DNA of 56,761 nucleotides, taken from Acutalibacteraceae bacterium (GTDB lineage Bacteria; Bacillota; Clostridia; Oscillospirales; Acutalibacteraceae). The notes under the pieces are model-generated. The model had not been told where the DNA came from. It saw only the letters and a list, made by a program, of their open reading frames with translations, and ran no database searches. Every line of letters starts with the position of its first letter. The stretch's first letter is position 1. Positions 3,117 through 50,888 of the stretch are shown here, one piece after another. Location of the stretch: positions 1 through 56,761 of the forward strand of contig JAZNJE010000123.1 in the NCBI GenBank assembly GCA_045577905.1, given 5' to 3'. Made by a program: the position numbers and the translations under genes.

Positions 3117-3790
3117 AATCTGTCCTCCCGTTTAACAAGCGTATAGTTCAGTTCCTTGTCAACAGAGAGCAAAAAGACCTCTGACAAGGAAACCTTATTT
3201 TTTCGTATTATATCTTCAACATCCCGTTTATCTATACCGAGTTCCTTTAAAACGTTCTTCATAATAACACCGTCATTTACGGCAGGAAGAGGCACCAGAG
3301 CAGAACTGCCGCTTTTTCCGACATCCTTTTTTGTGGCTGTTTGAAACTGACTTTTTAAAAGGACATTAAGGTTGCCGTTTGTCTCCATAATTGCATAGGA
3401 AACCTGACTTATATCGTAAACATCTCGGTCACGCAGAAGTTCAACCAAATCGGTAACGGTAATACGCAGACTTTTCATCTCCCTTTGGTCGATAACCCCA
3501 TCCCGAATGATAATTCGGCTGCTTCCCGCAAAAAGACGATGCAAAAGGGGGGATTTAAGTGTTAAAACCGAAAAAACAACCTCAAAAAAAACGAGGGTGG
3601 CTATGGCCGAAATGCCTAAAAACACCGGCTGGCTTATATCTTGGAGAGGAATTGCAACCATCTCTGAAATTAGAAGGGTAACAACAAGTTCGCTCGGTTG
3701 CATCTCGCCGATTTGCCTCTTACCCATAAGCCGAAGGCCCAAAATAACAAAAAAGTAAAGCAGGGTCGTGCGGAGAATAATAGTAAACAT
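3113..3790 (-). CDS. DUF421 (YetF-like) membrane protein
   Basis: N-terminal TM segments followed by a YetF-type C-terminal domain (LRITVTDLVELLR, YAIMETNGNLNV). Confidence 0.7.
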   Translation of the reverse strand: MFTIILRTTLLYFFVILGLRLMGKRQIGEMQPSELVVTLLISEMVAIPLQDISQPVFLGISAIATLVFFEVVFSVLTLKSPLLHRLFAGSSRIIIRDGVIDQREMKSLRITVTDLVELLRDRDVYDISQVSYAIMETNGNLNVLLKSQFQTATKKDVGKSGSSALVPLPAVNDGVIMKNVLKELGIDKRDVEDIIRKNKVSLSEVFLLSVDKELNYTLVKREDRL

Positions 3791-23872: not shown

Positions 23873-24868
23873 TTATGCTTTTTTGATTATCCTTATCTGC
23901 AAACGGTCAATTTTCTTGCCGTAAACACCTGCATAATCATTGTTATCGGTTACCCACGGATAGTAACTGCCGCCGACCCTTGACACTCGGCACTGAACAG
24001 AGTAAGAAGGCTCGCCCAAAAGCCGTACCCTAACACAGTCAATATCCTTGCCGATGATTCCGGCATAATCCTCTCGGTTTTTAACCCAAGGGAGCCACCT
24101 TCCGCCGAGGGTGTGAACCTGATATTCAATATCCCCTTCGGTCAGTTCGGCATATATGCATTGGATATCCTGCCTCGGCAGTCCTGCATAGTCGCTCTCT
24201 CCGTTTACATTGGGAAGCCAACCGCGTTCGGCGGTATATACCTGATAGAGAACGTCCGGCAGAGCGACCGACTGAGGCTTACAACTCTTCTTTTTGAGTC
24301 CGCAACGGGAGATCAAAACCTCGCTGATTGCCTCGGCACACTGATTTGCGTATTTCTCGCTCAAAATAATCGGAACATCTGCCACCGAGTCCATAAAGCC
24401 AAGTTCAAGCAAGACAGCAGGCATATCGGTCTCTCGCAGTTCGTGAAAATCGGCGGTTGCAAGAGGATTGGCACGGTTGCCCCGAAGCCCGGTTTTGCGG
24501 ATAAGTGCGTTATAAAAATCCACCTTCCAATCGGCGGTTACGGTGTCGGTCGAGGTATATGTGTAGGCAACAATACCACCGCCCGAGCCACCGTTGATAC
24601 CGGCATTATGGTGAATTGAAAGATAAAGATGAGCACCCCATTTATTTGCGGTATCGGTTCTCTTTTTAAGGGAAACGTTGACCTTGCCTGTTATGTCATC
24701 AACCCTTATAAGTTCCGCCCCGTCATATTCCGATAAAATGGCTTGTACCTTATCGCAAATACGGGAGTTAAGGCTCCATTCCCTTGTTTCGTTCGGGTCA
24801 ATAGACTTTAAACATCTTTTACCGGCGGAATAAAGTCCGTGACCGGCGCTAAGAGCAATTTTAAACAC
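23873..24868 (-). CDS. Endolysin: N-acetylmuramoyl-L-alanine amidase (Amidase_3) with three C-terminal ChW-like repeats
   Basis: Catalytic-domain motifs SAGHG, SIHHNAG and ELGFMDS. The repeat Y.V....G.WLPWV......AG..G..ID is present three times. GTG start follows AAGGAG. Confidence 0.85.
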   Translation of the reverse strand: MFKIALSAGHGLYSAGKRCLKSIDPNETREWSLNSRICDKVQAILSEYDGAELIRVDDITGKVNVSLKKRTDTANKWGAHLYLSIHHNAGINGGSGGGIVAYTYTSTDTVTADWKVDFYNALIRKTGLRGNRANPLATADFHELRETDMPAVLLELGFMDSVADVPIILSEKYANQCAEAISEVLISRCGLKKKSCKPQSVALPDVLYQVYTAERGWLPNVNGESDYAGLPRQDIQCIYAELTEGDIEYQVHTLGGRWLPWVKNREDYAGIIGKDIDCVRVRLLGEPSYSVQCRVSRVGGSYYPWVTDNNDYAGVYGKKIDRLQIRIIKKA

Positions 24869-24870
24869 AG

Positions 24871-25131
24871 TTATTCTCCTTTTTCAATAAAAATCTTGAA
24901 TGTTTGATGCAGTCCGGTGGATGCGAGACCCGAAACAAGACCGCCGAGCAAAACTTGGGGGGTAAAAACGAATCTGTTTAGCCAAAAAGCAAGAACTAAA
25001 CCTATTGTTCCCATAATAAGCGGAATGTAGCGGTTAATTTTATCCCCGGGCAAAATATTCTTTATAATATATCCTACGCAAAGACATATTCCAATAATGA
25101 TAAACTCAAAATAATCTTTTAAAAATTCCAT
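24871..25131 (-). CDS. Phage holin
   Basis: 86 aa with 2-3 TM helices and a charged C-terminus, immediately upstream of the endolysin. Confidence 0.7.
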   Translation of the reverse strand: MEFLKDYFEFIIIGICLCVGYIIKNILPGDKINRYIPLIMGTIGLVLAFWLNRFVFTPQVLLGGLVSGLASTGLHQTFKIFIEKGE

Positions 25132-25135
25132 AAAT

Positions 25136-25384
25136 CTAACCTCCTTTGTGAAATTCTTCCAAATCTGCTATTCGGTGGTTTACAACCTTGATTTCTTCGT
25201 TTTGGACGGCATCGCTTTTTTCAAGTTCGCCGACCCGTTCAATCACACGGTTGTGCTTTTCAACCTTTTTTTCAAGTTGCTCTATTCGGTAAAGGGCAAG
25301 CCTGTTGGAAACAAGGATGCCACCAAAGGTGCCGAAAAGGGTACCGATAAGAGAAATTATACTGACAGTAAGTGCTTCGCTCAT
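25136..25384 (-). CDS. XhlA-like TM plus coiled-coil lysis accessory protein
   Basis: 82 aa with an N-terminal TM helix and a heptad-rich tail (IEQLEKKVEKHNRVIERVGELEKSDAVQNEEIK). Its position before the holin and amidase matches the PBSX xhlA-xhlB-xlyA arrangement. Confidence 0.5.
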   Translation of the reverse strand: MSEALTVSIISLIGTLFGTFGGILVSNRLALYRIEQLEKKVEKHNRVIERVGELEKSDAVQNEEIKVVNHRIADLEEFHKGG

Positions 25385-25617
25385 AAAAGGGACCTCTCCT
25401 CATTTTTTATTTTCTCAACAAAACTATTGTACTCTGCAAATTCTTCGGGTTTAGTATCCCTCTGCCTGAGTATTGCGAGTTCATCATCAACCGAATAGAC
25501 CTCACGAATGCGGTTTACCACCCTCTGCTCATAAGGAACAGGAGGAATATCTTTCTGCATTTGGGCAATTTCTTCCTCGGTCATATCTCTGTAAATTCCA
25601 TTATCATATATTCTCAT
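25381..25617 (-). CDS. Small tail-fibre-associated protein (XkdW-like)
   Basis: 78 aa with the motif DDELAILRQRD..PEEFAEYN, which is common downstream of fibre genes in Firmicute prophages. The ATG lies 2 nt after the fibre stop. Confidence 0.45.
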   Translation of the reverse strand: MRIYDNGIYRDMTEEEIAQMQKDIPPVPYEQRVVNRIREVYSVDDELAILRQRDTKPEEFAEYNSFVEKIKNEERSLL

Positions 25618-25619
25618 TT

Positions 25620-27008
25620 TTAACGCCCCCAAACCTTGAATTTTGTGCCTGCTGCAAATCCGTTTTCAGATGTGTTAAACTTTAAATCCTGACCCACGCT
25701 CGATATATAATTATAATTCCTTGCATCATTCATAAAGTAAGTCGAAACTGCTTTAAAGTTTGAACCTGCATTTGACGTAGTATAGTAATAAGAAGTTAGG
25801 TTTCCGTCACAAAAAATCTTATTATCAGGTGATATATATAAATCAGCAACAAAGTATAACTTTCCCGTTGATTTTGGACTTGCTTGTGAAGTCCACAACT
25901 GGGATCCTTCAAACGTCAAGCGAATTGATTGCGATGTTATTGTAGTATCACTCGGTATAACTAATGATTCTATATGGATTTCTTTAAAGCGAAGGTTACC
26001 TTTCGGTATTCGTATCTCCGTTACGGCCTCAGTTAAGGTTATATCCTCTATAAGTTCCCATTCTTTTTGAGCAACGGTTGATATTGCCTCGGCAACCGCT
26101 TTACCGCTTTGAGGGTTCAAACTTTCGGGGGAGTAGGTCTTGTCAACCGCCGACTTATTAAGTTTGTCGGAAACATCCTTAACAGCCTTAACACTGTTTA
26201 AGACAGTCGGATTTATGCCGTCCGAGGTAATATCAAGCAAATATTTATTGCCGACGATATATCCAAGTTCGGCAAATTTATCCAAGGAAGTGCTTTTCAA
26301 AAGACCCTGGCAATCGGTAAAAATCAACTCAAAGTTATTGTCAACGAGAGGCTTGATGTTTATAAGAGTATGGATATTTCTGCCGTTTGTTCCGTAATTG
26401 ATATCAAAAGGTGTTATTTCGGTAAGTTCAAGGTTAGCCTTCTCGACCACATCGGGGGTTTTGCCCGGCTCGCCCTTAAATTCTCCCCGTTCAAGACGGC
26501 CTTCAATGTCAAGCACAAGGTTTTGGGTTTCATTTTTGGTTTCGGTTAGTTCTTCTGCCGACACCCCTGCGCTGAGTATTTCGTCACGAATAGACCTTAC
26601 CGATTCTTCCATTGCCGAAAGGCTTTGGTGGGGCTTATCTTCGGCAAGGGGGCTTCGTTTAAGGGAGGTCAGATGTACCTTTACGGGGAAGGACAAAATT
26701 TCGGCATCGCGGTCGGTTATGACAAAAACCACCTCGACCTCATTGCCGAATCGTGTAGCCGAATAGGGCAGAGGGCGGGAAAAAGCACCCGAGGGGGAGG
26801 GGGTAAGATTCTCCGACGGGTTCCAACCGTCAACCGTGTTAAAATCAATGCGGAAAAGAGCAGATTCGCCGAGCATTTTTTTCAAAGAAGGGTCCATAAC
26901 AAAAGTAAAAAGGGTTGCGTTATCCTCGTACTGCATACCGCCCCAAACCCTCGGCGACGGGGTTTCGCGGTCGGCAGAAACGGTAAAAGTGTAGTTTCTA
27001 ACAGCCAT
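25620..27008 (-). CDS. Tail fibre / receptor-binding protein
   Basis: 462 aa with an N-terminal virion-attachment-like domain, a coiled-coil segment, a short collagen-like GEFKGEPGKTPD stretch and a beta-rich C-terminus. It lies between the tail and lysis genes. Confidence 0.55.
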   Translation of the reverse strand: MAVRNYTFTVSADRETPSPRVWGGMQYEDNATLFTFVMDPSLKKMLGESALFRIDFNTVDGWNPSENLTPSPSGAFSRPLPYSATRFGNEVEVVFVITDRDAEILSFPVKVHLTSLKRSPLAEDKPHQSLSAMEESVRSIRDEILSAGVSAEELTETKNETQNLVLDIEGRLERGEFKGEPGKTPDVVEKANLELTEITPFDINYGTNGRNIHTLINIKPLVDNNFELIFTDCQGLLKSTSLDKFAELGYIVGNKYLLDITSDGINPTVLNSVKAVKDVSDKLNKSAVDKTYSPESLNPQSGKAVAEAISTVAQKEWELIEDITLTEAVTEIRIPKGNLRFKEIHIESLVIPSDTTITSQSIRLTFEGSQLWTSQASPKSTGKLYFVADLYISPDNKIFCDGNLTSYYYTTSNAGSNFKAVSTYFMNDARNYNYISSVGQDLKFNTSENGFAAGTKFKVWGR

Positions 27009-27042
27009 ATTTTTTCTCCTTTATAATCATAATGGTCATTAT

Positions 27043-29004
27043 TTAACGATTCCTACGCGGCGTATAAAAAACCGCAAAATCGTTTATTTCAAGTTTTCCT
27101 TTTGCCGAAATCACAAACAGTATGTCTGTAAGAAAGGCGGGAAGGCGGACTTCGTTCGAGCCGTTAAAAATTTCGGTCGTCATAAAGTGCTCCCCGTCGG
27201 CAAAAACCGAAAGTTCGGCATATCCGTCGGCTTTTATGACGGCAAGTACCGAATGGAGGCGAGCCTGTTCGGGATTATCGAAGGGAGATATTGTAACCGA
27301 GGTTTCAATCGGCAGAGAGTCGGCCTCGTCGGGGTCAAGAGTGCCGAGCAAAAAGCGGTCGCAATCATCTTTCAGGGTAAAAACATATATTGAACTGCTC
27401 ATATTGTTGGCAAGGAAAAAAGCATTGCCCCCAACCGAAAGGGCATTAAGCACCTTGACGGGAAGGTCAAAGGAAGGAATAAAGGACAGGTTTTTGCCGA
27501 TTGGAACCGAAAATACAGAGTTTTCGGTAAAAACCAGATAGTTTTCGCCGTCGGCAACGGCAAAACGGGGCTCCCCGTCCACTTCTCCCGCCTTGTCACA
27601 GGAAAGTGAGGAAGAAAGGGAGAAAATCTCGCCCGATTCGGAGGAAAACAGCATTTTGTCCTCTGTTTTGACGAGGGTTCGGGGAAGAAGGGTTGTTCCA
27701 AGACCGGCAACCGATTCCAAGGTAAGTTTGGGTGTAGAAAAGGAGGAAGGAGGCCTTGTTCCCGATAAAACATCGGGGATTGAATAGGGCTCGGAGGAGA
27801 CAACCTTTGCCGAGAAAACCGTGTGAGGTTTAAAAATTAAGAGTTTTCCTTTAACCGAGTCGAGAGCAACCACCGAACCCGACGGCTCGGGCAGAGAAAC
27901 AGAGCAACTTTTCGGAAAATAAAGGGGATTTACGGGGTCTATCCACAAAAGGTCGTGAGGATAGTATCGGCTTCCCGAAAAAACTGTAACCGATTCCGAA
28001 CCGCTTCCCTTAAAGGCGGCAAGGGTGGTTGAACGGCTCATAGAACATACCCTTAAAGCCTCATCGGGGGAAACCGTCTTGTACCGAAAAGTAAGACTGT
28101 TCGGCCGACCTGCGTAGGGTAGAGGGAAGGTGGCGGGACCGTCATAGAAAATGATTTTACCGCTGCTTCTGTCACAGTACATAACCACCTCGGTTTCGTC
28201 AACCGTTTGGGGAGCCGAATGGGTAGAGCCTGCGGCAATTTCCCATACCGTTTTGTCCCCCTCTGCCGAAACATAGGTAGCCCTGATTTTTTCGGAGGGG
28301 TCAGGCAGTCGGGGCAAAATAAAAATATAGGAATGTCGGTCGGCGGTAAAGGTGCAGTCGATAACCGACGTCAGCAAATTTTCGCTTTCAAAGACGGCGG
28401 GGGCGGGGATATAGAAGTCATCTGCCTCGCCATTTACAAATAGGTTGCCTCTGCCGTTTATAAATGCCGTAGGTATATAAAAATCTCCGTCGCTGAGCAA
28501 TCGCCAGGAATCAAGGGTAGATGCAAGTTCGTAAAATCTTACCGTATCGGGTTGGTTGCCGTAACAGATACGGACGGCAAGATATATGCCGGCACCGTAA
28601 AGGGGTTTGCCCGAGTAAAGGAAAAAGGTATCGGGGACGCCAAAGGTGTAACTGTCGGAACGGGAAAAGAGCACCTTACCGAGGGGCATAATTTCGCCGG
28701 TCTCAAAAAAAGCATTAAAGGCATATGAAATATTGCTGTACCCATCCTCCTCGATAACCGCCGCTATTTGCGCCTGACGGTTATTTATGCCGAGGGTAAG
28801 GTCGGTAACCGAAAATGTTGTATAGGAATCTTCGGTCAGGATAGGGTTAAAAATTACGGGAGACGCAGGTAGGCGCATACCCGACCTTGAAACGAGTTTT
28901 CGGTCTTTCGGCACCATATTTACGGCAGACCGAATTTTATCAAAATTACTCTCCGAATTTACCGACACCCTAACAAGATTTCTCTTTTTTGGGTTAATTA
29001 GCAC
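27043..29004 (-). CDS. Large tail structural protein (unknown family)
   Basis: 653 aa, beta-rich. GTG at 29004 lies 6 nt after GGAGGTG and overlaps the upstream stop by 11 nt. The ORF-track start at 29139 would overlap the upstream gene by 145 nt. Confidence 0.5.
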   Translation of the reverse strand: MLINPKKRNLVRVSVNSESNFDKIRSAVNMVPKDRKLVSRSGMRLPASPVIFNPILTEDSYTTFSVTDLTLGINNRQAQIAAVIEEDGYSNISYAFNAFFETGEIMPLGKVLFSRSDSYTFGVPDTFFLYSGKPLYGAGIYLAVRICYGNQPDTVRFYELASTLDSWRLLSDGDFYIPTAFINGRGNLFVNGEADDFYIPAPAVFESENLLTSVIDCTFTADRHSYIFILPRLPDPSEKIRATYVSAEGDKTVWEIAAGSTHSAPQTVDETEVVMYCDRSSGKIIFYDGPATFPLPYAGRPNSLTFRYKTVSPDEALRVCSMSRSTTLAAFKGSGSESVTVFSGSRYYPHDLLWIDPVNPLYFPKSCSVSLPEPSGSVVALDSVKGKLLIFKPHTVFSAKVVSSEPYSIPDVLSGTRPPSSFSTPKLTLESVAGLGTTLLPRTLVKTEDKMLFSSESGEIFSLSSSLSCDKAGEVDGEPRFAVADGENYLVFTENSVFSVPIGKNLSFIPSFDLPVKVLNALSVGGNAFFLANNMSSSIYVFTLKDDCDRFLLGTLDPDEADSLPIETSVTISPFDNPEQARLHSVLAVIKADGYAELSVFADGEHFMTTEIFNGSNEVRLPAFLTDILFVISAKGKLEINDFAVFYTPRRNR

Positions 29005-29332
29005 AGGGCTCACCTCCGAAAAGAGTGTTGCGGACGGTGTCGGTGCAGGAGAGGTACTTCTTTTTAAGATTGTTATAAACGTCGTTAAACTCAGAGGCCC
29101 CTGCGTCATCCCCCAACAATATACTGATGAGCATTGCAATACCGATTTCGAGGAGTATTTTTCCTCCCCTTTGAAGGGTGGGAATCGGGTCGGTCAAAGA
29201 GCAAACCGACTCGGCACCTATATCACTCAGTATGGTGTTTGTGAAGCCGACCGCCGCCTTTTTAATAAGTTCCGAAGGTGCACCACCTCCGCAGAGGGCA
29301 TAGGCTTCGGTTAAAATATCAATTACCTTCAT
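28994..29332 (-). CDS. Head-tail connector/adaptor-size protein (unknown family)
   Basis: 112-aa helical protein overlapping the portal stop, in the position expected for a head-completion or adaptor protein. Confidence 0.4.
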   Translation of the reverse strand: MKVIDILTEAYALCGGGAPSELIKKAAVGFTNTILSDIGAESVCSLTDPIPTLQRGGKILLEIGIAMLISILLGDDAGASEFNDVYNNLKKKYLSCTDTVRNTLFGGEPCAN

Positions 29333-30935
29333 TTTTAATTTCCTCCATCTGATTTTTTAGGTCCTCAATATCGGGAATGAGGGAAGAAGGCAGTCGCTTT
29401 ACATACTGCAAGGCTGAAATTGCCCCCTTTTCGTAAAGAGAAGTCAGCAGTTTTGCAGAATCTTCTTCACTGCGTGTGACTCCTTCGGACAAGACAACCG
29501 AAACCGACAAAAGAAGGTCACGGTACCGTGCAGAATCGAAGGGGAAATACCACTCTCCGTTTTCGTCGCTTATTTTGAGACCTCTTTTTCCGTACATTGT
29601 CACAAAAAACTCTGCCCAAATAAGGGCAATTTCCTCTATAAAACGGTTGAAGCGGTTTTTGAGGAGAACAAGGGGTTCGGTAGCCGCTGCACGCAGGGCG
29701 ATGATTGCGGATGTATTGTCGGTTGACATGTCACCCAGAGCAGCCATTGTAGCACCGCTTTGGGAGAGGGTATTTACAATAAGTTGAGATACCGATTGAT
29801 TAAAGCCGGAAGAAAAATCAGGCGGATTTATGTATTTTACCGCAGATGAAATTTCCTCCGCATTACCCCAAACACGGATTATTTGTCCGGGGTCGTTGGT
29901 AATGTCCTCGGGGACGAGTTCTCCGTTTACTACCATAAGGGGCATACCGCTTGACACCGCCGACCAAACCGATGCCGTAATCATACGGTTTATTGCAATC
30001 TGATTGGGTATTAAGTAGGTAATTTCGCTGTCGCCGTAAATATTGTTGTCACGGGGCTCCCAAACAAACCCCGCAAGGGGATACAGCCTGACCCCGATGT
30101 CCCACTCTTCACGGACCGTAAAGTCTCGGGTTACCTTAACCGCAAAAATGTGCATACTGCCGTCAGGAAGCCTCTTTTTATAAAGACGGGTCAAAAGAAG
30201 AATCTTTTCTGCCGACTCCTCAGGAGTTGGCTCAGGCAGAGAGGTCTGTCCGAAGAGCCTTGCCTCATAAAGAAGGTCGGCAAGAGGCTTTTTCTCGGCA
30301 AGAATAATAAAGGGTTGAGATTGAAGACGGGTGCAGGTGGGGTCGCCGAAATATACGTTTTCGGCTCGGACAACCTCCGAAACAATGTCTCCGAGTATTG
30401 GTTTTCCACCGATTTTGTCTGCATAAAGCCCCGTTCTTACCGACGGGTCAAAATAGGTGTAGATATATCCGCTTCCCGAAATATATGCGTTTTTAAGGGC
30501 AGAGTCCAAAAGTGCGGGCAGTCCCACCCTTTTGGAGACGGTGTCTCGGTAGGAGTTAAGTGCCGAGGTCATAAGGGCAATTTCATTCTTGCTTTGTATC
30601 GGAGCATAGAGAGAATCTCCCCGCTTTGAAAGAGCCTTTCTTTCTTCCTTGACGGCACGGTCGGTATCCTTGGTGTGGGGGACACCCTCTGCGGTGTAGC
30701 AAACCTTAATCTTCGATGAGACAAGTTGACTCATTTTGAAGTCGCCTATTCTCTTAATAACATTGTGTCTGACCAAAGGGCGGTCGGAAGGAGAGGAAAC
30801 ACCGCTCCACTGGTCGCCCGCAAAAAAGCGTTCGTTAAATTTTATCTGCTCATAAAGTCCTCTGTTTCCTACCGAGGACTTAAATTGCCGAATACGGTTA
30901 TATTCTTCAAAGATTTTTTCGCGGCTTATCTGCAT
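29319..30935 (-). CDS. Portal protein
   Basis: 538 aa with a portal-typical N-terminal motif (NERFFAGDQW), appropriate size and genomic context. The ATG at 30935 lies after a terminator hairpin and the RBS-like GAAAGGA. Confidence 0.7.
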   Translation of the reverse strand: MQISREKIFEEYNRIRQFKSSVGNRGLYEQIKFNERFFAGDQWSGVSSPSDRPLVRHNVIKRIGDFKMSQLVSSKIKVCYTAEGVPHTKDTDRAVKEERKALSKRGDSLYAPIQSKNEIALMTSALNSYRDTVSKRVGLPALLDSALKNAYISGSGYIYTYFDPSVRTGLYADKIGGKPILGDIVSEVVRAENVYFGDPTCTRLQSQPFIILAEKKPLADLLYEARLFGQTSLPEPTPEESAEKILLLTRLYKKRLPDGSMHIFAVKVTRDFTVREEWDIGVRLYPLAGFVWEPRDNNIYGDSEITYLIPNQIAINRMITASVWSAVSSGMPLMVVNGELVPEDITNDPGQIIRVWGNAEEISSAVKYINPPDFSSGFNQSVSQLIVNTLSQSGATMAALGDMSTDNTSAIIALRAAATEPLVLLKNRFNRFIEEIALIWAEFFVTMYGKRGLKISDENGEWYFPFDSARYRDLLLSVSVVLSEGVTRSEEDSAKLLTSLYEKGAISALQYVKRLPSSLIPDIEDLKNQMEEIKNEGN

Positions 30936-30951
30936 AAAATCATCCTTTCTT

Positions 30952-30981
30952 AAAAAAGGGACGGAGGTTGCCCTCCGTCCC
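30952..30981 (-). terminator. Intrinsic terminator-like hairpin between the capsid and portal genes
   Basis: A 10-bp GC-rich stem GGGACGGAGG/CCTCCGTCCC is followed by TTTTTT on the minus strand. Confidence 0.6.
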
Positions 30982-30988
30982 AAAGTGA

Positions 30989-32170
30989 TTACGCTACCGT
31001 AACAGTTGCAACCTCGGAATTAACCGAGTTGGTACCGTCGGCGGTAACCTTACAGAAGAAGTAATATTCTCCTGCGGGAAGGTCGTCAGGAATGTTCATA
31101 GATGCGGCAGTTTCTCCTATAAGACGGGCAGCGCCCCTACCGTTTTTGATGTCAGCCTGATACCATTGGTATGCAAGTTCAACACCTGCTTCGGAGGTTG
31201 CGGCAACCGAGAGAGACTCGTTTATTGCACCCTCGGTTACGGTAATGTCGGAGGGAGAAGACGTAATGGTAAGGGGAGAAGAGAAGAAGCCCCAAACCGT
31301 ATCGGTTGCCGAAGCCTTTACAAATACGTCGTAGTAAATACGGTAATCGAACTTGTAGGCATCGGCGCCGGTGTTCTGTTCAGGTGTGAAAACCCTGAGT
31401 TTTTCGGTTTTCTTTACAAGATGAGCAGCGGTTTTGGGAAGAAGGAGCATATAAATTCCGCGGGCGCCGTCGGCAGGAACAAATCCGCCGACCGCATCGT
31501 TCTTGAAGTTATAGGCGGTCTTCATTCTCTCGCTTACAACGGGAATAATGGCAACACCGTTAATCGACTTAACTTTGAGGTTGATTTCGCCCTGCTTAAA
31601 GTCAGAAACGGTAACAAAGCGTGTAATCTCGGCAGAGGACATAAGTGCGGCATAAGCAACAGAGTCCATAAAGCAAACGAGGTCACGGTCATAGCCTGCA
31701 ACCGACTGAACCTGATTTACAAGGGTAGAAAAAGCCTCGAAAGGTCTTTCAAGGTCGCCTGCAATTGCGTTGCCCTTTGAAAGAGCAAGGTTGCCGAGTT
31801 TTGATATAACATAGGCATCACATTCGGGAACAACCTTTGTTTTAACATATTCGCCGAGCACCTTTCCTGCGAGATTTGCAATGCCGGTCTCGTCCATATC
31901 TTCACGGTCGATGGTAAGCGAACGGGCACGGTCCATTGTCATTGTGTAGGAACTTCCTTTTACCGAAACTGAGCCGCTTGCAAAACCGTTAGCACGGTCA
32001 TAATCGGCTAGTCCGTCAAAGTCAACGTCGGGAATGATAACGGTTTTTGCACCGACAAAACGGGTGCGAAGAATGTTGTCGGCAAGGAATGCGGTGGCAC
32101 TCTTTGCCTCGAAAACACGGTCAAGTGCGCCGGAATAGTTTTCGGCGGCAGCAATAGAATTGATAGACAT
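30989..32170 (-). CDS. Major capsid protein with a C-terminal Ig-like domain
   Basis: 393 aa, immediately after the scaffold gene. The last ~95 aa resemble a bacterial Ig-like domain (ITVTEG....YQWY....AGEYYFFCKVT). Confidence 0.7.
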   Translation of the reverse strand: MSINSIAAAENYSGALDRVFEAKSATAFLADNILRTRFVGAKTVIIPDVDFDGLADYDRANGFASGSVSVKGSSYTMTMDRARSLTIDREDMDETGIANLAGKVLGEYVKTKVVPECDAYVISKLGNLALSKGNAIAGDLERPFEAFSTLVNQVQSVAGYDRDLVCFMDSVAYAALMSSAEITRFVTVSDFKQGEINLKVKSINGVAIIPVVSERMKTAYNFKNDAVGGFVPADGARGIYMLLLPKTAAHLVKKTEKLRVFTPEQNTGADAYKFDYRIYYDVFVKASATDTVWGFFSSPLTITSSPSDITVTEGAINESLSVAATSEAGVELAYQWYQADIKNGRGAARLIGETAASMNIPDDLPAGEYYFFCKVTADGTNSVNSEVATVTVA

Positions 32171-32196
32171 AAATTTTTTCTCCTTAAATAGTTTTT

Positions 32197-32703
32197 TCAG
32201 TTACCCCAAACGCCCTTTAAAAATTCTGCGGCGGTGGGGTCCTGTCGGTCATCTGCCGACAGAGAGCCGGTGGTAGAGGCGGCGGTAAAACATTGATTCT
32301 CGGTTTCTTCTGCCGCCGCCTTTGCCTTTTTATACTCGTAGAGCAGGTACTCAAAAACCAGTCCTGTACCATTATTTTTTGCGGCTGTTTTTACCTCCTC
32401 GGGGAGCATATCGGGTGAGGAAATTTCGGGGAAATGAATACGTAATTGACCAAAATTATCGGGGCTTTCAGCCTGCGCGCGCAATTTTTCGTAGTCCTCA
32501 TAAATCTGGTCAAACTTCATTCCCTTTTGTGCCAGACTGACGGCAGTTTCTCGGTCAAGGTCCAAAATTTCTTTGTTAAACTTGATTTTCATAAAACTGT
32601 CGCAGGGGGAAGGGAGGTCGGGTGTGGTTGCCTCGTCCTTCTCATTTAAAATCTCCTCCTCGGTCTGTGGTTGGACCGAATCATCTTTTAATTTTTCTTC
32701 CAT
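32197..32703 (-). CDS. Scaffolding protein
   Basis: Acidic, helical, 168 aa, with the IKFNKEI..L...A..LAQKGM motif, located upstream of the capsid gene. Confidence 0.6.
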   Translation of the reverse strand: MEEKLKDDSVQPQTEEEILNEKDEATTPDLPSPCDSFMKIKFNKEILDLDRETAVSLAQKGMKFDQIYEDYEKLRAQAESPDNFGQLRIHFPEISSPDMLPEEVKTAAKNNGTGLVFEYLLYEYKKAKAAAEETENQCFTAASTTGSLSADDRQDPTAAEFLKGVWGN

Positions 32704-32873
32704 TTAGAAATTTCCTCCGTTAATTCAAAAATTTTTTCGCTTCCGTCAAAGGACAGGAAGTCATAAAGGCCGACTGCTTCGCCCTTCCTTCGGGTGGCAG
32801 GGGGCTTTTTTGTCCTTCTTTTTCCTAAATTCCAACCGATAATAAGAAAGACAAGTGCAACAAGTGCGGTCAT
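32688..32873 (-). CDS. Small membrane peptide (one TM followed by a basic stretch)
   Basis: The ATG at 32873 overlaps the TerL stop (ATGA). Function is unknown. Confidence 0.4.
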   Translation of the reverse strand: MTALVALVFLIIGWNLGKRRTKKPPATRRKGEAVGLYDFLSFDGSEKIFELTEEISKWKKN

Positions 32874-34117
32874 ACACTCCACCCCCCTTTGTTTCCGTAA
32901 AGCCTCCTCGACGGCTCTCCGCCGTTTTTAACATCGTAAAAGGCATAGCGGAGAGCATCCATAAGGTGGTTGTCGGAGTCCATCGGGGTGTTGGGAAGAC
33001 TCTTGTTCCAACGGTATGAGGAAAGTTCTTCCAGAGTGTTCTTGCATTTTGGGTCAACAATAATTCGGTATTCGCTTATGTTCATAATTCCGTTTATAAT
33101 ACTGTCTTTGCCCTTGACCGACGGCATAAGACGGGTCAGACCGAGCCGTCTTAAATCCTCGTTCGTTTTGGGCTCGGCAGAGTCGGCACGTATCCGTTCC
33201 TTGCCGTAGCCCTTTTGGATAATCAGTCGGGCAATGTCGGAATTGAGCATCTTTTTCTGACAAAACTCATCAAAAATATAAATGATTTTTTCCTCACGGT
33301 TGACCTTGATTGCAATAAAGGCGGTCGGGTCGGTGGTGTAGCCGTAATCGAGGCCGAAAAATGCCTGCCAGTTTCCCTTGGCGGTGTCGGGAACACCCGT
33401 AATCCAGTTTTCATAAACCAGACCTTCGGCAATTCCCCATTCGCCAAGCCCCGCAACAGCATATCGACGGGGATGCTCGGTTTTGAGCCGTTCAAAAACC
33501 GCACGGTCGGTTTGGTCCAAAAATTCGTTTACCAGATAGTTGGTCGAAAAAACCGTACAGTCGGGGGAAGGATTGTCAAAGAAACGGGCTTTCAGCCAAT
33601 GCTTTTCGCTCCAAGGGTTAAAGGTCAAGGTTGTCTGCTTGAAAAGGGGAGGGGGAAGACTTCCCCTCGGCACCGATAAATCAAGTTTTTCAAAGTCGGA
33701 AAGTTCGGCGATTTCATAGGCTTCTTCAACCCAAACAAAATTGAGAAAACCTTTCTCGACGGTGGTTGATGCCAACTTCAAAACGTCGTCAAACCCTCTG
33801 AAAAGTATTTTTTGACCGGTGGGAATATAGGTCATTTCAAGCGGAGCAACACAGTTTTTAAAAAGGTGAGAAACCCCGAGTTTTTCCTGCGCCCATTTAA
33901 GTTGGGCAAAGGTCGAGTCTCGGTGGGTGTTCATAACGGCTCGGACTACAAGAATATTGCTTTGGGGATACCGTATGAGGCGGTAAATAAGATTGAGCGC
34001 AGTTGTCGCAGATTTTTTGGAGCCCTTTCCGCCCTTTAAAACCCTGTAACGGGTCTTACAGTTCCAAAACTCATCGTATCCGTCTCCGACCTTCTCTTTA
34101 AGACTTACCGATGTCAT
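32870..34117 (-). CDS. Terminase large subunit (PBSX family)
   Basis: Walker A GGKGSKKS, Walker B-like FVWVEEA, and nuclease motifs GLDYG, DSAEP and DNHLMDALRYA. The start is uncertain (ATG at 34117 or GTG at 34132). Confidence 0.9.
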   Translation of the reverse strand: MTSVSLKEKVGDGYDEFWNCKTRYRVLKGGKGSKKSATTALNLIYRLIRYPQSNILVVRAVMNTHRDSTFAQLKWAQEKLGVSHLFKNCVAPLEMTYIPTGQKILFRGFDDVLKLASTTVEKGFLNFVWVEEAYEIAELSDFEKLDLSVPRGSLPPPLFKQTTLTFNPWSEKHWLKARFFDNPSPDCTVFSTNYLVNEFLDQTDRAVFERLKTEHPRRYAVAGLGEWGIAEGLVYENWITGVPDTAKGNWQAFFGLDYGYTTDPTAFIAIKVNREEKIIYIFDEFCQKKMLNSDIARLIIQKGYGKERIRADSAEPKTNEDLRRLGLTRLMPSVKGKDSIINGIMNISEYRIIVDPKCKNTLEELSSYRWNKSLPNTPMDSDNHLMDALRYAFYDVKNGGEPSRRLYGNKGGWSV

Positions 34118-34352
34118 CGACAAGGGTAACACCTCCCGAAACCTCTCCGAGTCCGATAATTCCGAGCAGTTCCTTTATTGCGGAAAGTTCTCCTCCCGCC
34201 GCCTTTTTATAGAGTGCGGCGGCAATTACCGTCATACGGGTCGGCTTTTTCACCTTAATTTCCATCTCCGAGAGCCGTTCATCTTCTTCTGCTGTCGCAG
34301 GCAGACGTAACAGACGGAGCAGTTCATCGGATAACTGTTTTTTGCTTTTCAA
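34098..34352 (-). CDS. Short terminase small-subunit-like protein
   Basis: 84 aa with a segment resembling the TerS helix (MTVIAAALYKKAAGGELSAIKELL). TTG start lies 7 nt after AGGAGGTG, and the gene overlaps TerL. Confidence 0.4.
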   Translation of the reverse strand: MKSKKQLSDELLRLLRLPATAEEDERLSEMEIKVKKPTRMTVIAAALYKKAAGGELSAIKELLGIIGLGEVSGGVTLVDDIGKS

Positions 34353-34379: not shown

Positions 34380-34445
34380 ATTCTACAACAAAACAGTAGG
34401 ACATAAACGGACAAAAAAGCCTAAAAAGCGGACACGGGAGGACAT
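34380..34445 (-). promoter_or_regulatory. Promoter of the phage-like locus: four phased TGTCC direct repeats plus the -10 TAGAAT, with no -35
   Basis: Minus strand reads ATGTCCtcccgTGTCC-N16-TGTCCgtttaTGTCC-N13-TAGAAT. Box start-to-start spacings are 10, 21 and 10 nt. Confidence 0.6.
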
Positions 34446-34505: not shown

Positions 34506-34874
34506 CTAATTTCGGTCATGGGGTTTAAAAATCAGCGAGGCAAAATATCCCGAAACAATTGCCGTCGCAATACCTGCCGCCGTTGCCGTAAGTCCTCCTG
34601 TAAAAATTCCGATAAATCCGTATTGACCAACCGCTTTTCTTATCCCTTCGGCAAGGGAATGGCCGAATCCGGTAAGGGGAACTGTGGCGCCCGCTCCCGC
34701 AAATTCTGCTAAGGGACCGTAAACGCCGACGGCAGAAAGTATTACCCCCGACACCACAAATCCGACAAGAATACGTGCAGGAGTAAGTTTGGTAAAATCA
34801 ATCAGAATTTGACCGACAAGACAAAAACTGCCCCCCACAAGAAAAGCCTTTAAACAGTTTATAAAAATATCCAT
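34506..34874 (-). CDS. spoVAE: Stage V sporulation protein AE (SpoVAE/SpoVAEB type)
   Basis: Strong resemblance to SpoVAE (AFLVGG..C..GQ.L.D.TKLTPA, AGAGATVPLTGFG, IFKP). Confidence 0.8.
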   Translation of the reverse strand: MDIFINCLKAFLVGGSFCLVGQILIDFTKLTPARILVGFVVSGVILSAVGVYGPLAEFAGAGATVPLTGFGHSLAEGIRKAVGQYGFIGIFTGGLTATAAGIATAIVSGYFASLIFKPHDRN

Positions 34875-49583: not shown

Positions 49584-49660
49584 CCGCTCGTGGCGCAGTT
49601 GGATAACGCAGCAGATTCCGATTCTGAAGAACGGGGGTTCGAATCCCTTCGAGCGGGCCA
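49584..49660 (+). tRNA. tRNA-Arg (anticodon CCG), atypical, CCA encoded
   Basis: Manual cloverleaf: acceptor CCGCTCG/CGAGCGG (C1:G72), anticodon loop TTCCGAT, T arm GGGGG-TTCGAAT-CCCTT with two G:U pairs, and one D-stem mismatch. Confidence 0.7.
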
Positions 49661-49911
49661 AAGAAAACGACAAGTTTCGATAGAACCTTGTCTTTTTCAG
49701 TTATATTCGCCTTGCGGCGAGTTAGGCACAATATCACTTAAAACTGTAGGGGTTCAAACACATAGGTTGACTTTTTGAAAGGTATCGAATCTACACACCC
49801 TTTCCAAATAAAAATGAGCCTACCGTAAGGTTTCGGCTTGTTTTTATTTTGTGATAACTATGAGGGATGAGAAGCAGGAGTAGTAGCGAATACTATAGTT
49901 TTATAAAAAAG

Positions 49912-49991
49912 ATGTCCTTTTTTTTCGCGTTTTATGTCCACCTGTGTCCATATTTTTTACTTTATAATAATTCTTGCAAATCGATTTGCAA
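49912..49991 (+). promoter_or_regulatory. Islet promoter: three phased TGTCC repeats, N13, the -10 TATAAT, then a perfect 18-bp palindrome
   Basis: ATGTCC (49912), ATGTCC (49934) and TGTCC (49945), then 13 nt, then TATAAT (49963..49968). The palindrome TTGCAAATCGATTTGCAA is at 49974..49991. Confidence 0.6.
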
Positions 49992-50018
49992 TTTTTATTA
50001 TAAAGGAGTATTATTAAA

Positions 50019-50576
50019 ATGAGTTTTTTTAGCGAATTGTTTTCTGCCGGAGTGGGGGGTGAGAAAACACCTGCTGCACCGAAATGGAACAAATGGATAC
50101 ATCGTAATTTAAGTGATAATCATTGTCCAGAATGTCTGATGCTCGATAGTTGTTGGTTTCAAAGAGAGAAAACGCCCAAGTGGCCACACCATCCGTTTTG
50201 TCATTGTATCTTAGAAGATATCCCGTATAACGATGTATTAACCAAAACCACATCTGATAGCGCTTATAGTAAATTTGATATATACTTATTCAACACAGAA
50301 GGTAGATACTCTGACACTAAAAAGCATTTGTTTGAAAGTTGGGGATATACCGTTGAAGATGGTAAGTGGTTGCAAAGCGAAATTAATAAACAAGGGTTAG
50401 AAAAGTATATTTCGGGCAATTATGTATTAGGAAAATTGAATAAAGACGGGCAACGAATTAGTATTCGAATTGAAATTCCAAGAAAAGATAAAACTGAAAA
50501 AGTTTCTTTTATTACCGGTTGGATGGCATATCCAAACGGACATATACAGTTAACAACGCCTTATGGAGGTAAATAA
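50019..50576 (+). CDS. Mini MuF/SPP1-gp7-type zinc-ribbon motif fused to a DUF6883-like C-terminal domain (toxin-like or effector-like)
   Basis: W...L.D..CPEC..LD......P..P.HPFCHC matches the C-terminal signature of phage head-morphogenesis (MuF) domains. The C-terminal ~110 aa fit the DUF6883 pattern (K...YL......K..F...GY....W..L ... TGWMAYP). Confidence 0.55.
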   Translation: MSFFSELFSAGVGGEKTPAAPKWNKWIHRNLSDNHCPECLMLDSCWFQREKTPKWPHHPFCHCILEDIPYNDVLTKTTSDSAYSKFDIYLFNTEGRYSDTKKHLFESWGYTVEDGKWLQSEINKQGLEKYISGNYVLGKLNKDGQRISIRIEIPRKDKTEKVSFITGWMAYPNGHIQLTTPYGGK

Positions 50577-50577
50577 T

Positions 50578-50826
50578 ATGAAAATGATGGATTGTGTAGA
50601 AGTAATTGTTGAAAAAGAAAAGTATGTTAAGGACGGAGTTCATAAAGGAATGCAGGGCTGGATTTGTTTGGAACAACGAACCGACGGATATTGGCTTGTG
50701 AATTTTCCGCAATACGGCGAAAAAGAGGATATTGCCGAAATCTCAATTAGCGAAGAAGATTTAAAACTTATTCCCAAAATGGATGCGAGAGTTAACGAAC
50801 AAATAAAAGCTAAATTCGGCGATTAA
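50578..50826 (+). CDS. DUF4926-like small protein (putative immunity/antitoxin partner)
   Basis: 82 aa with an SH3-like pattern (D.VEVIVEK...V..G..G.I......DGYWLVNF). The ATG lies 8 nt after GGAGG and 2 nt after the upstream stop. Confidence 0.5.
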   Translation: MKMMDCVEVIVEKEKYVKDGVHKGMQGWICLEQRTDGYWLVNFPQYGEKEDIAEISISEEDLKLIPKMDARVNEQIKAKFGD

Positions 50827-50852
50827 CATTATGTATATTTGAATCCCTTTCC

Positions 50853-50887
50853 AAAAACAAGACAGTCTTTGGACTGTCTTGTTTTTA
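50853..50887 (+). terminator. Intrinsic terminator after the islet genes
   Basis: An 11-bp stem ACAAGACAGTC/GACTGTCTTGT followed by TTTT. Confidence 0.75.
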
Positions 50888-50888
50888 T

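Follow-up and report, generated by a model that had tools for sequence, protein, structure and literature searches.

A Candidate Minimal MuF Toxin-Immunity Cassette in a tRNA-Adjacent Islet of an Acutalibacteraceae Bacterium, Sharing a Promoter Design With a Phage-Like Particle Locus

Introduction

In bacteriophage SPP1, gp7 is a portal-binding protein that travels with the phage head. The MuF polymorphic toxins of temperate phages have been described by Jamet et al. (2017; PMC5576092), and Apk2 and Bxa are examples of them (PMC11699363). In that description, MuF toxins were recognised by hidden Markov model matches to PF04233, PF06152, MuF3 or MuF4 at the family threshold (Jamet et al., 2017), and muf genes were defined by their position directly after the portal gene (PMC5576092). 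Toxins fused to MuF are widespread in prophages, with a biological role that is unknown, and capsid targeting by the MuF part is a hypothesis (PMC11699363, PMC9503650); authors in the field regard MuF as packaged in the head and as possibly targeting capsids. Here we describe a 56,761-nt stretch of DNA from an Acutalibacteraceae bacterium (contig JAZNJE010000123.1), referred to in its whole length as the window, in which a small AT-rich islet downstream of a tRNA-Arg(CCG) gene carries two genes, A and B, and in which a phage-like particle locus lies on the other strand. A encodes a putative remnant of a MuF domain followed by DUF6883, and B a small, apparently SH3-like protein. We read the islet, with a probability of about 0.6, as a self-contained, horizontally mobile, minimal MuF polymorphic toxin-immunity cassette that is co-regulated with the particle locus and whose product A would be carried in particles. 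Related loci fetched for comparison are designated by L-numbers.

Domains of Protein A

The two genes had been predicted to be coupled, and they are: a single base separates the TAA stop codon of A from the ATG of B at 50578, and a GGAGG (50565-50569) lies 8 nt upstream of that start. Protein A has 524 relatives in a set of 5.8 billion proteins, the best 120 of them nearly all 185 aa long and 58-100% identical. Its residues 85-182 match the Pfam family DUF6883 (PF21814; profile positions 14-107 of 110, E 3.8e-7, with 30.8 bits where 27 is the cut-off), in agreement with the DUF6883-like domain first proposed from the sequence, and the same annotation is precomputed for nearly all of the best 120 homologs. 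The Cys/His motif reported for the N-terminus is also present, in the form W..W.H..HCxxC...C.F...P..P.HHPxCHC; W23, W26, H28, H35, C36, C39, C45, P53, P56, C61, H62 and C63 are invariant among 42 homologs, and the CxxC...H..CxC core is retained down to 34% identity.

The assignment of this motif to the C-terminal signature of MuF domains stands as remote homology, detected by hhalign and Foldseek, whereas a single-sequence search of Pfam did not return it. A profile of residues 1-82, run against 1.84 billion representative sequences, matched 165 proteins, nearly all of them small proteins with the same N-terminal domain and DUF6883. The profile also found P0377 (E 3.6e-5), a true Phage_Mu_F protein (Pfam E 2e-9), and hhalign aligned it with the end of the MuF domain of P0377 (97.5%, E 8e-12). 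P0350, a divergent member of the family, matches Phage_Mu_F positions 62-111 of 112 (E 0.0027), and weak PHROGs head-morphogenesis matches to A itself (E 0.031 and 0.14) fall at the C-terminal ends of the profiles. The AlphaFold2 (AF2) model of A (predicted local distance difference test, pLDDT, 84.5; predicted template modelling score 0.81) shows the DUF6883 part as helices followed by a four-stranded antiparallel sheet, and its only significant structural neighbours in BFVD (Foldseek) were two "minor capsid proteins" of 473-497 aa from gut siphoviruses (E 5.9e-6 and 2.4e-4). P0377, P0350 and these structural matches together support, as remote homology, the view that the N-terminal ~55 residues of A correspond to the C-terminal half of Phage_Mu_F (profile positions ~62-111 of 112).

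Protein B and the Constancy of the Pair

Protein B has 2635 relatives, the best 120 of which are 78-100% identical. Its AF2 model (pLDDT 73.6) consists of five strands and a C-terminal helix, and the top Foldseek matches were SH3, KOW and NdhS barrels, none at E < 1e-3. The original prediction of a DUF4926-like protein is thus retained in part: the modelled fold appears SH3-like and a remote relationship is suggested, but there is no direct match, as neither Pfam (including DUF4926, PF16277, at E <= 10) nor PHROGs returned any family for B, and PF16277 is not precomputed for any of the best 120 homologs. The relationship runs through P0350, whose gene in L120 is followed by a 66-aa open reading frame (ORF) with a weak precomputed PF16277 match; hhalign of the B profile with this 66-aa protein gave 91.3% (E 9.4e-7), so that B appears DUF4926-like, and this by transitive homology only.

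A homolog of B follows A directly in every locus inspected (126/126), comprising all 89 loci taken from genomes and viral contigs and all 37 taken from human-gut metagenomes. Several genomes hold two cassettes; tandem A-B,A-B arrays with diverged B genes occur in L021 and in at least ten human-gut loci, and L025 has an orphan B gene. In L004 (6813-7419) and L049 (10813-11641), two Barstar genes and another B-like gene come after A-B. Furthermore, a 174-aa protein adjoins A-B in L051 (8645-9169), behind a copy of the same promoter, and consists of the half-MuF tag (Phage_Mu_F 64-111 of 112; 30.3 bits where 29.6 is the cut-off) and, fused to it, a barnase-family RNase (E 6.7e-10), which points to a modular mini-MuF tag. 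Constant pairing, arrays, orphan B, Barstar neighbours and the barnase sister appear to indicate a polymorphic toxin system. Since A is never without its partner, and given the arrays and the sister fusion with barnase, DUF6883 would be the toxic part of A, by analogy most likely of RNase type. Neither A nor B matched PADLOC (E <= 1) or NCBIfam, and tblastn of both against INPHARED phages and PLSDB plasmids found nothing.

These data also bear on a quite different account, in which A would be a non-toxic minor head or assembly protein comparable to a short MuF such as SPP1 gp7, B a chaperone or small virion protein, and DUF6883 a structural or nucleic-acid-binding domain. Most MuF proteins are in fact short, non-toxic and structural (PMC5576092), the two minor capsid proteins of 473-497 aa match over the whole model of A, and neither Foldseek against the Protein Data Bank (PDB) nor PDB sequence-profile searches, which returned no match for A or B, disclosed a catalytic site or a toxin fold of known type. 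A structural protein would, however, hardly be expected to survive and duplicate far from head genes, as this cassette does, or to share its tag with a barnase, with Barstar genes nearby. The small ORF paired with A is constant, and such an ORF accompanies 89% of MuF toxins against 25% of short MuFs (PMC5576092). We consider a purely structural role improbable.

The Particle Locus and Its Links to the Cassette

Besides TerL, major head protein, portal and endolysin genes (Table 1), the particle locus of the window contains a small TerS-like ORF and ORFs of 168, 112, 698 and 462 aa. No MuF gene, integrase or replication gene was found in it (23873-34350), and a MuF gene after its portal is ruled out, that position being taken by the 112-aa ORF, which is without the motif; A lies about 19 kb from this portal. 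The head-protein family counts 1808 relatives (the best 120 full length and 61-78% identical). Through head-protein homologs six further particle loci were fetched (L111, L112, L113, L114, L116 and L117), all of them compact head-plus-lysis modules situated at different chromosomal places among different housekeeping neighbours. The module, of about 10 kb, is made up of a TerS-like ORF, TerL, a scaffold-like ORF, the head protein with an Ig-like C-terminus, the portal, ORFs of ~110 and 650-700 aa, a variable tail-like gene, a holin and an amidase. It has the look of an element domesticated in this bacterial family and akin to a gene transfer agent (GTA) or a defective phage.

Physical linkage to the cassette was observed in other loci. 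Homologs of the scaffold-like, head, portal and 698-aa proteins are encoded 2-8 kb upstream of A-B in L019, L020, L049/L004, L051 and L087, on the same strand and in the same order, and A-B is there the last unit, after the lysis genes. In L088, which like L087 is an IMG/VR contig, the genes run TerL, portal (phrog_533, E 3e-51), A homolog, B homolog, scaffold (PF06810) and major head protein (phrog_212). A search for further post-portal genes with divergent members in viral contigs gave no other example. Prophage-like modules hold the cassette in ~8 of the 89 loci, and the A-B family was met in 3 of 2.9 million IMG/VR contigs.

Some neighbours recur at both kinds of locus or at particle loci. 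SpoVAC- and SpoVAD-like genes adjoin the particle locus of the window (34506-34874), and SpoVA genes are situated within 1-2 kb of A-B cassettes in L010, L011, L015, L041, L059 and L063. A gene for a 23S rRNA-intervening-sequence protein (PF05635; 36141-36488) follows tRNA-Leu(CAG) less than 2 kb from the window's particle locus, and a member of the same family is found in L117 (773-1123), ~7 kb upstream of the particle locus.

A Promoter Design Common to Cassette and Particle Locus

The claim that the islet shares a TGTCC-repeat architecture with the particle locus was upheld: in the window, the pattern TGTCS-N5-TGTCS-N13-TANAAT has no match outside these two promoters, and none of 100 shuffles contains it. 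In the islet promoter, the proximal TGTCC pair, at 10-bp spacing, is followed by 13 nt and the -10 box. The particle-locus promoter has four TGTCC as two 10-bp-spaced pairs, the proximal one again separated by 13 nt from the -10 box, TAGAAT. Clusters of at least three same-strand TGTCC exist in the 56.7 kb at these two promoters only. Across 110 related loci, the strict pattern gave 23 matches in 22 loci, every one of them 60-110 nt upstream of an A gene and including both cassettes of L021. Three of the six further particle loci carry the element at their promoters: L111 with four ATGTCC repeats at 10-bp spacing, L113 as ATGTCGTGGAATGTCG-N13-TACAAT, and L116 with one upstream ATGTCC and a proximal pair, N13 and TACAAT, like the islet of the window. 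L114 has a partial motif. Within 163 kb of these particle loci, the motif is confined to their promoters, and in the ~1.4 Mb fetched altogether it is found almost only at A-B cassettes and particle-locus promoters.

As the repeats take the place of a -35 element, they point to an activator that binds direct repeats, and we infer such a regulator for both promoters. The common design predicts that toxin and capsids are made together under one regulator. The 16-mer ATGTCGGTGAATGTCG has 21 matches in IMG/VR, about the chance expectation and none in promoter context, and the element was accordingly rejected as a general phage late promoter for that collection. A reading of the TGTC repeats as Pho boxes was unsupported, the pstS promoter in L120 having TTTAC(G/A) boxes instead. 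Upstream of the divergent cassette gene of L120, three 11-12-bp direct repeats GGAAGTTGAAAG (3690-3740) occupy the same position with a different site.

The TGTCC promoter could also be under a host regulator that unrelated accessory genes have in common (e.g., a stress or sporulation regulon), without any tie between toxin and particles. Phage contigs of IMG/VR lack the motif in promoter context, and cassettes of other lineages have other promoters, both of which would suit such a regulon. The near confinement of the motif to A-B cassettes and particle promoters in ~1.4 Mb argues against it, and the physical linkage in L019, L020, L049, L051, L087 and L088 is an independent argument for a functional tie, so that we hold this explanation to be very improbable.

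Layout, Boundaries and Mobility of the Islet

The coordinates of the features are collected in Table 1. The segment 49661-50887 had been described as AT-rich, and its GC content of 0.35 against 0.445 for the window is indeed the lowest among all windows of that size; the neighbouring tRNA-Arg(CCG), which had been called atypical, shows nothing clearly atypical in ARAGORN or Rfam (54 bits). Housekeeping genes flank the islet upstream (YjeF, a lipoprotein and PAP2), and downstream are found a gene for a 207-aa unknown protein, a cytidylate-kinase-like gene, SerRS and ParB/ParA.

Table 1. Positions of the features of the islet and of the particle locus in the window.
Feature	Position	Strand	Basis and remarks
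Gene A, 185 aa, mini-MuF::DUF6883, predicted toxin	50019..50576	+	ORF, Pfam, homologs, AF2
A residues 20-75, Cys/His zinc-knuckle-like domain (CxxC...HHPxCHC)	50076..50243	+	remote Phage_Mu_F homology
A residues 85-182, DUF6883, putative RNase-type toxin domain	50271..50564	+	Pfam PF21814; AF2
Gene B, 82 aa, probable SH3-like small barrel, predicted immunity protein	50578..50826	+	coupled to A (TAA-T-ATG)
Islet promoter	49913..49968	+	TGTCC starts 49913, 49935, 49945; -10 TATAAT 49963-49968
Perfect 18-bp palindrome TTGCAAATCGATTTGCAA	49974..49991	.	core of 46-bp inverted repeat 49960-50005, from -10 to Shine-Dalgarno region
Shine-Dalgarno AAGGAG of A	50003..50008	+	read from sequence; string GGAGTATTAT kept in relatives
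Particle-locus promoter	34380..34444	-	TGTCC at 34440/34430/34409/34399; TAGAAT
Phage-like particle locus	23873..34350	-	Pfam, PHROGs; conserved in relatives
TerL	32870-34132	-	
Major head protein	30989-32170	-	phrog_422, E 1.9e-71
Portal	29319-30983	-	phrog_156, E 7e-16
Endolysin	23873-24868	-	
tRNA-Arg(CCG)	49584..49660	+	ARAGORN; Rfam tRNA 54 bits; CCA encoded
Hairpin GACAAG...CTTGTC and T-run	49669..49698	+	read from sequence; terminator-like, for tRNA gene
CCCTTTCCAAATAAAA, then hairpin and T-run (inverted repeat I7)	49798..49849	+	cassette left boundary; repeat search
TTTGAATCCCTT, 11/12 copy of tRNA 3' segment TTCGAATCCCTT (49638-49649)	50838..50849	+	repeat search (D10)
A-B operon terminator, perfect 15-bp-stem hairpin and T-run	50853..50886	+	repeat search

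The left boundary of the cassette is also the left copy of the direct repeats D5 and D13 of the repeat search, and TTTGAATCCCTT overlaps the right copy of D5 (50845-50860); as an att-like remnant, TTTGAATCCCTT would be a weak one. The two terminators that bracket the cassette (49798-49849 and 50845-50888) both start with CCCTTTCCAAA and both end with CTTGTTTTTAT, with interiors that differ, which looks like a terminator duplicated or recombined at the insertion point. The 1.2-kb islet is without an integrase, although att-like repeats flank the ~1.3-kb cassette at several different tRNA genes.

In ~14 of the 89 loci, the cassette is situated 170-700 bp downstream of a same-strand tRNA gene, and many different tRNAs are involved. 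In L009, L048, L078 and L081, the 3' end of the tRNA gene or the sequence beside it recurs over 17-22 nt at a distance of 44-328 nt after B, with a repeat score reached by none of 200 shuffles; L008 occupies the same tRNA-Arg(CCG) site as the window, and the tRNA-end copy is short and imperfect in both. In all 79 loci compared, the AT content of the cassette exceeds that of the flanking DNA (GC 0.369 vs 0.443), and a large serine recombinase or phage-type regulators adjoin some of the other cassettes. The variety of tRNA sites, the flanking tRNA-end repeats and the AT-richness fit integration at tRNA genes and subsequent loss of all but the cassette. The likely target at which the islet integrated would then be tRNA-Arg(CCG): a phage-like element probably integrated there site-specifically, after which only the cassette and the weak att-like repeats would have been left.

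Palindrome and Leader of Gene A

A perfect 18-bp palindrome had been reported between the -10 box and the ribosome-binding site, and it is there. Its proposed function as a repressor operator fared less well. The palindrome is missing from 88 of 89 related upstream regions, its sole relative being that of L083, with one mismatch and a near-identical promoter; limited to the window and L083, it does not support a conserved operator. The original prediction had further linked the islet to a palindrome at 716-731 through the core TTGCAAAT. That palindrome, CTTATTTGCAAATAAG, exists, and the octamer common to the two palindromes is no more frequent than chance would allow: the window has 9 copies of TTGCAAAT, the expected number being 5 +/- 2.4, and a count of 9 is attained in 9 of 100 shuffles, so the link carries no weight.

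The -10 region is complementary to the Shine-Dalgarno region in the window (49958-50010), L008 (9950-10006) and L013 (128-184), with a stem of 12-13 bp, including G-U pairs, and fold z-scores of -3.5, -4.4 and -3.0 for the three loci (-3.5 being that of the window palindrome RNA). In read-through transcripts, such a stem could mask the Shine-Dalgarno sequence, as in fold-back inhibition of the IS10 type. Both arms of the hairpin are functional elements in their own right, and as no compensatory changes or covariation were found in relatives, the RNA hairpin is left as unproven.

Mechanism, Rival Readings and Significance

In the mechanism that we propose, gene A would encode a MuF knuckle remnant joined to a toxic DUF6883, and the SH3-like product of gene B would be the immunity protein, neutralising A inside the cell that makes it. 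A site of two or three TGTCC repeats at 10-bp spacing, bound by an activator, would substitute for the -35 element. The MuF remnant may dock A to the portal or the procapsid, and A could then be carried in particles, released from them and act on neighbours without B. Loading of A into particles is plausible.

The main rival is a purely intracellular role. The cassette would then be a type II toxin-antitoxin (TA), addiction or abortive-infection module derived from a former phage moron, A would never be exported, and the MuF remnant would be either vestigial or a sensor of an invading portal or procapsid that frees the toxin from B. Most loci being lone two-gene islets among housekeeping genes would suit this, as would the tight coupling of the genes, the terminators on both sides of the cassette and the higher conservation of B compared with A. 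The moron-like position after the lysis genes of prophage-like elements, with an own promoter, and the persistence by tRNAs with att-like remnants after element loss are likewise what an addictive module would show. Orphan B genes, tandem diversified pairs and Barstar neighbours are, on the other hand, typical of immunity to incoming toxins and not of classical TA modules, the promoter element shared with capsid genes and the post-portal position in L088 are left unexplained, and PADLOC returned no match. We regard the intracellular role as unlikely, although it deserves serious consideration.

The reading as a particle-borne toxin-immunity cassette has its own difficulties, which weigh against it at three levels. 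At the protein level, Pfam finds only DUF6883 in A, and no Phage_Mu_F match even at E <= 10; the N-terminal half of the MuF domain is not kept. A search of the PDB with the model of A (Foldseek) gave nothing significant, only noise (CorA, UFC1), so that an RNase (BECR) fold of DUF6883 is not demonstrated. At the promoter level, two of the six further particle loci (L112 and L117) have a degenerate motif, and about one third of the cassettes use another promoter, of the ordinary sigma-A extended -10 type (TGnTATAAT), which fits expression independent of capsid genes. At the genomic level, the canonical MuF slot after the portal was seen once only, in L088. None of the 37 human-gut metagenome loci has head genes nearby, and most cassettes are lone chromosomal islets without head genes within 7-10 kb. 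To call the islet part of the particle locus would go too far: in the window the two lie about 16 kb apart, with housekeeping genes between them, and none of the six other particle loci has A-B. Cassette and particle locus are still not distributed independently, given the six linked loci (L019, L020, L049, L051, L087 and L088), and the expected association holds to that extent, as against the particle loci without A-B and the many lone islets.

A wider proposal would make the conserved particle locus of the Acutalibacteraceae, a family of gut Clostridia, a toxin delivery vehicle, in which small RNase toxins encoded in trans are recruited by a portal-binding zinc-knuckle tag of ~50 residues, one regulator acts through ATGTCS repeats, and B and Barstar genes are collected against the particles of neighbours; for the time being we regard this as a tentative and rather doubtful extension. 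The interest of the cassette itself lies in the fact that MuF appears trimmed here to ~50 invariant residues, is still found joined to two toxin types or more and, in one phage, still occupies the MuF slot. If the tag does suffice for packaging, the system would allow the capsid-targeting hypothesis to be tested directly and would provide a means of loading proteins into capsids. A promoter common to unlinked toxin cassettes and the conserved particle locus leads us to expect a regulon in abundant gut Clostridia, and suggests a possible new route of interbacterial antagonism. Should the intracellular role be the true one, the cassette would represent a new and very common toxin-antitoxin family of gut Firmicutes.

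Comparison With Known Systems

With type II TA modules, the cassette has in common two coupled genes, mobility, AT-richness and persistence after loss of the carrier element. It differs from them in that the toxin gene comes first and has an N-terminal domain of phage-structural type, in the orphan immunity genes of its arrays, and in a promoter design common to a capsid locus. Barnase-barstar pairs are approached by the sister gene of L051, with its tag on a barnase-family RNase, and by the Barstar genes beside B in L004 and L049, whereas the toxin domain in the window is DUF6883 and A is without a signal peptide. As regards DUF6883 (PF21814) and DUF4926 (PF16277) neighbours, A is itself a DUF6883 member and its relative in L120 has a partner that weakly matches DUF4926, whereas B has no Pfam DUF4926 match. 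No description of a fusion of DUF6883 to a MuF remnant was found in the literature.

The particle locus resembles GTAs, PBSX-like defective phages and tailocins in its compactness and chromosomal location, in combining structural with lysis genes, in its conservation throughout a bacterial family and in the absence of integrase and replication genes. It differs from them as a head-containing, podovirus-like module of ~10 kb. To our knowledge, a protein toxin encoded in trans has not been described as cargo of GTA, PBSX-like or tailocin particles. A further comparison is offered by the short MuF proteins SPP1 gp7 and Mu gpF (PF04233), which have the same CxxC...P.HPxC.C knuckle at the end of the domain; these keep the N-terminal half, which A lacks, and are without toxin domain or immunity partner.

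The closest systems are the MuF polymorphic toxins of temperate phages, and the differences from them concern mainly size and setting. A keeps only the C-terminal ~50 of the ~112 Phage_Mu_F profile positions, below the Pfam threshold, and has 185 aa where these toxins typically exceed 400. In the window, A does not follow the portal and the islet stands among housekeeping genes, not within a temperate phage or prophage; in general the cassette is unlinked from portal and terminase genes, has its own promoter and terminators and occurs as a lone islet by tRNA genes, its link to capsids being a shared promoter element and not gene order. The similarities concern the design itself: a MuF-derived N-terminal part and a presumed effector as C-terminal part, a small ORF (<150 aa) directly downstream, here the 82-aa B, an association with phages, in which the relative in L088 lies right after the portal, and one tag borne by different toxins (DUF6883 and barnase) and accompanied by poly-immunity arrays.

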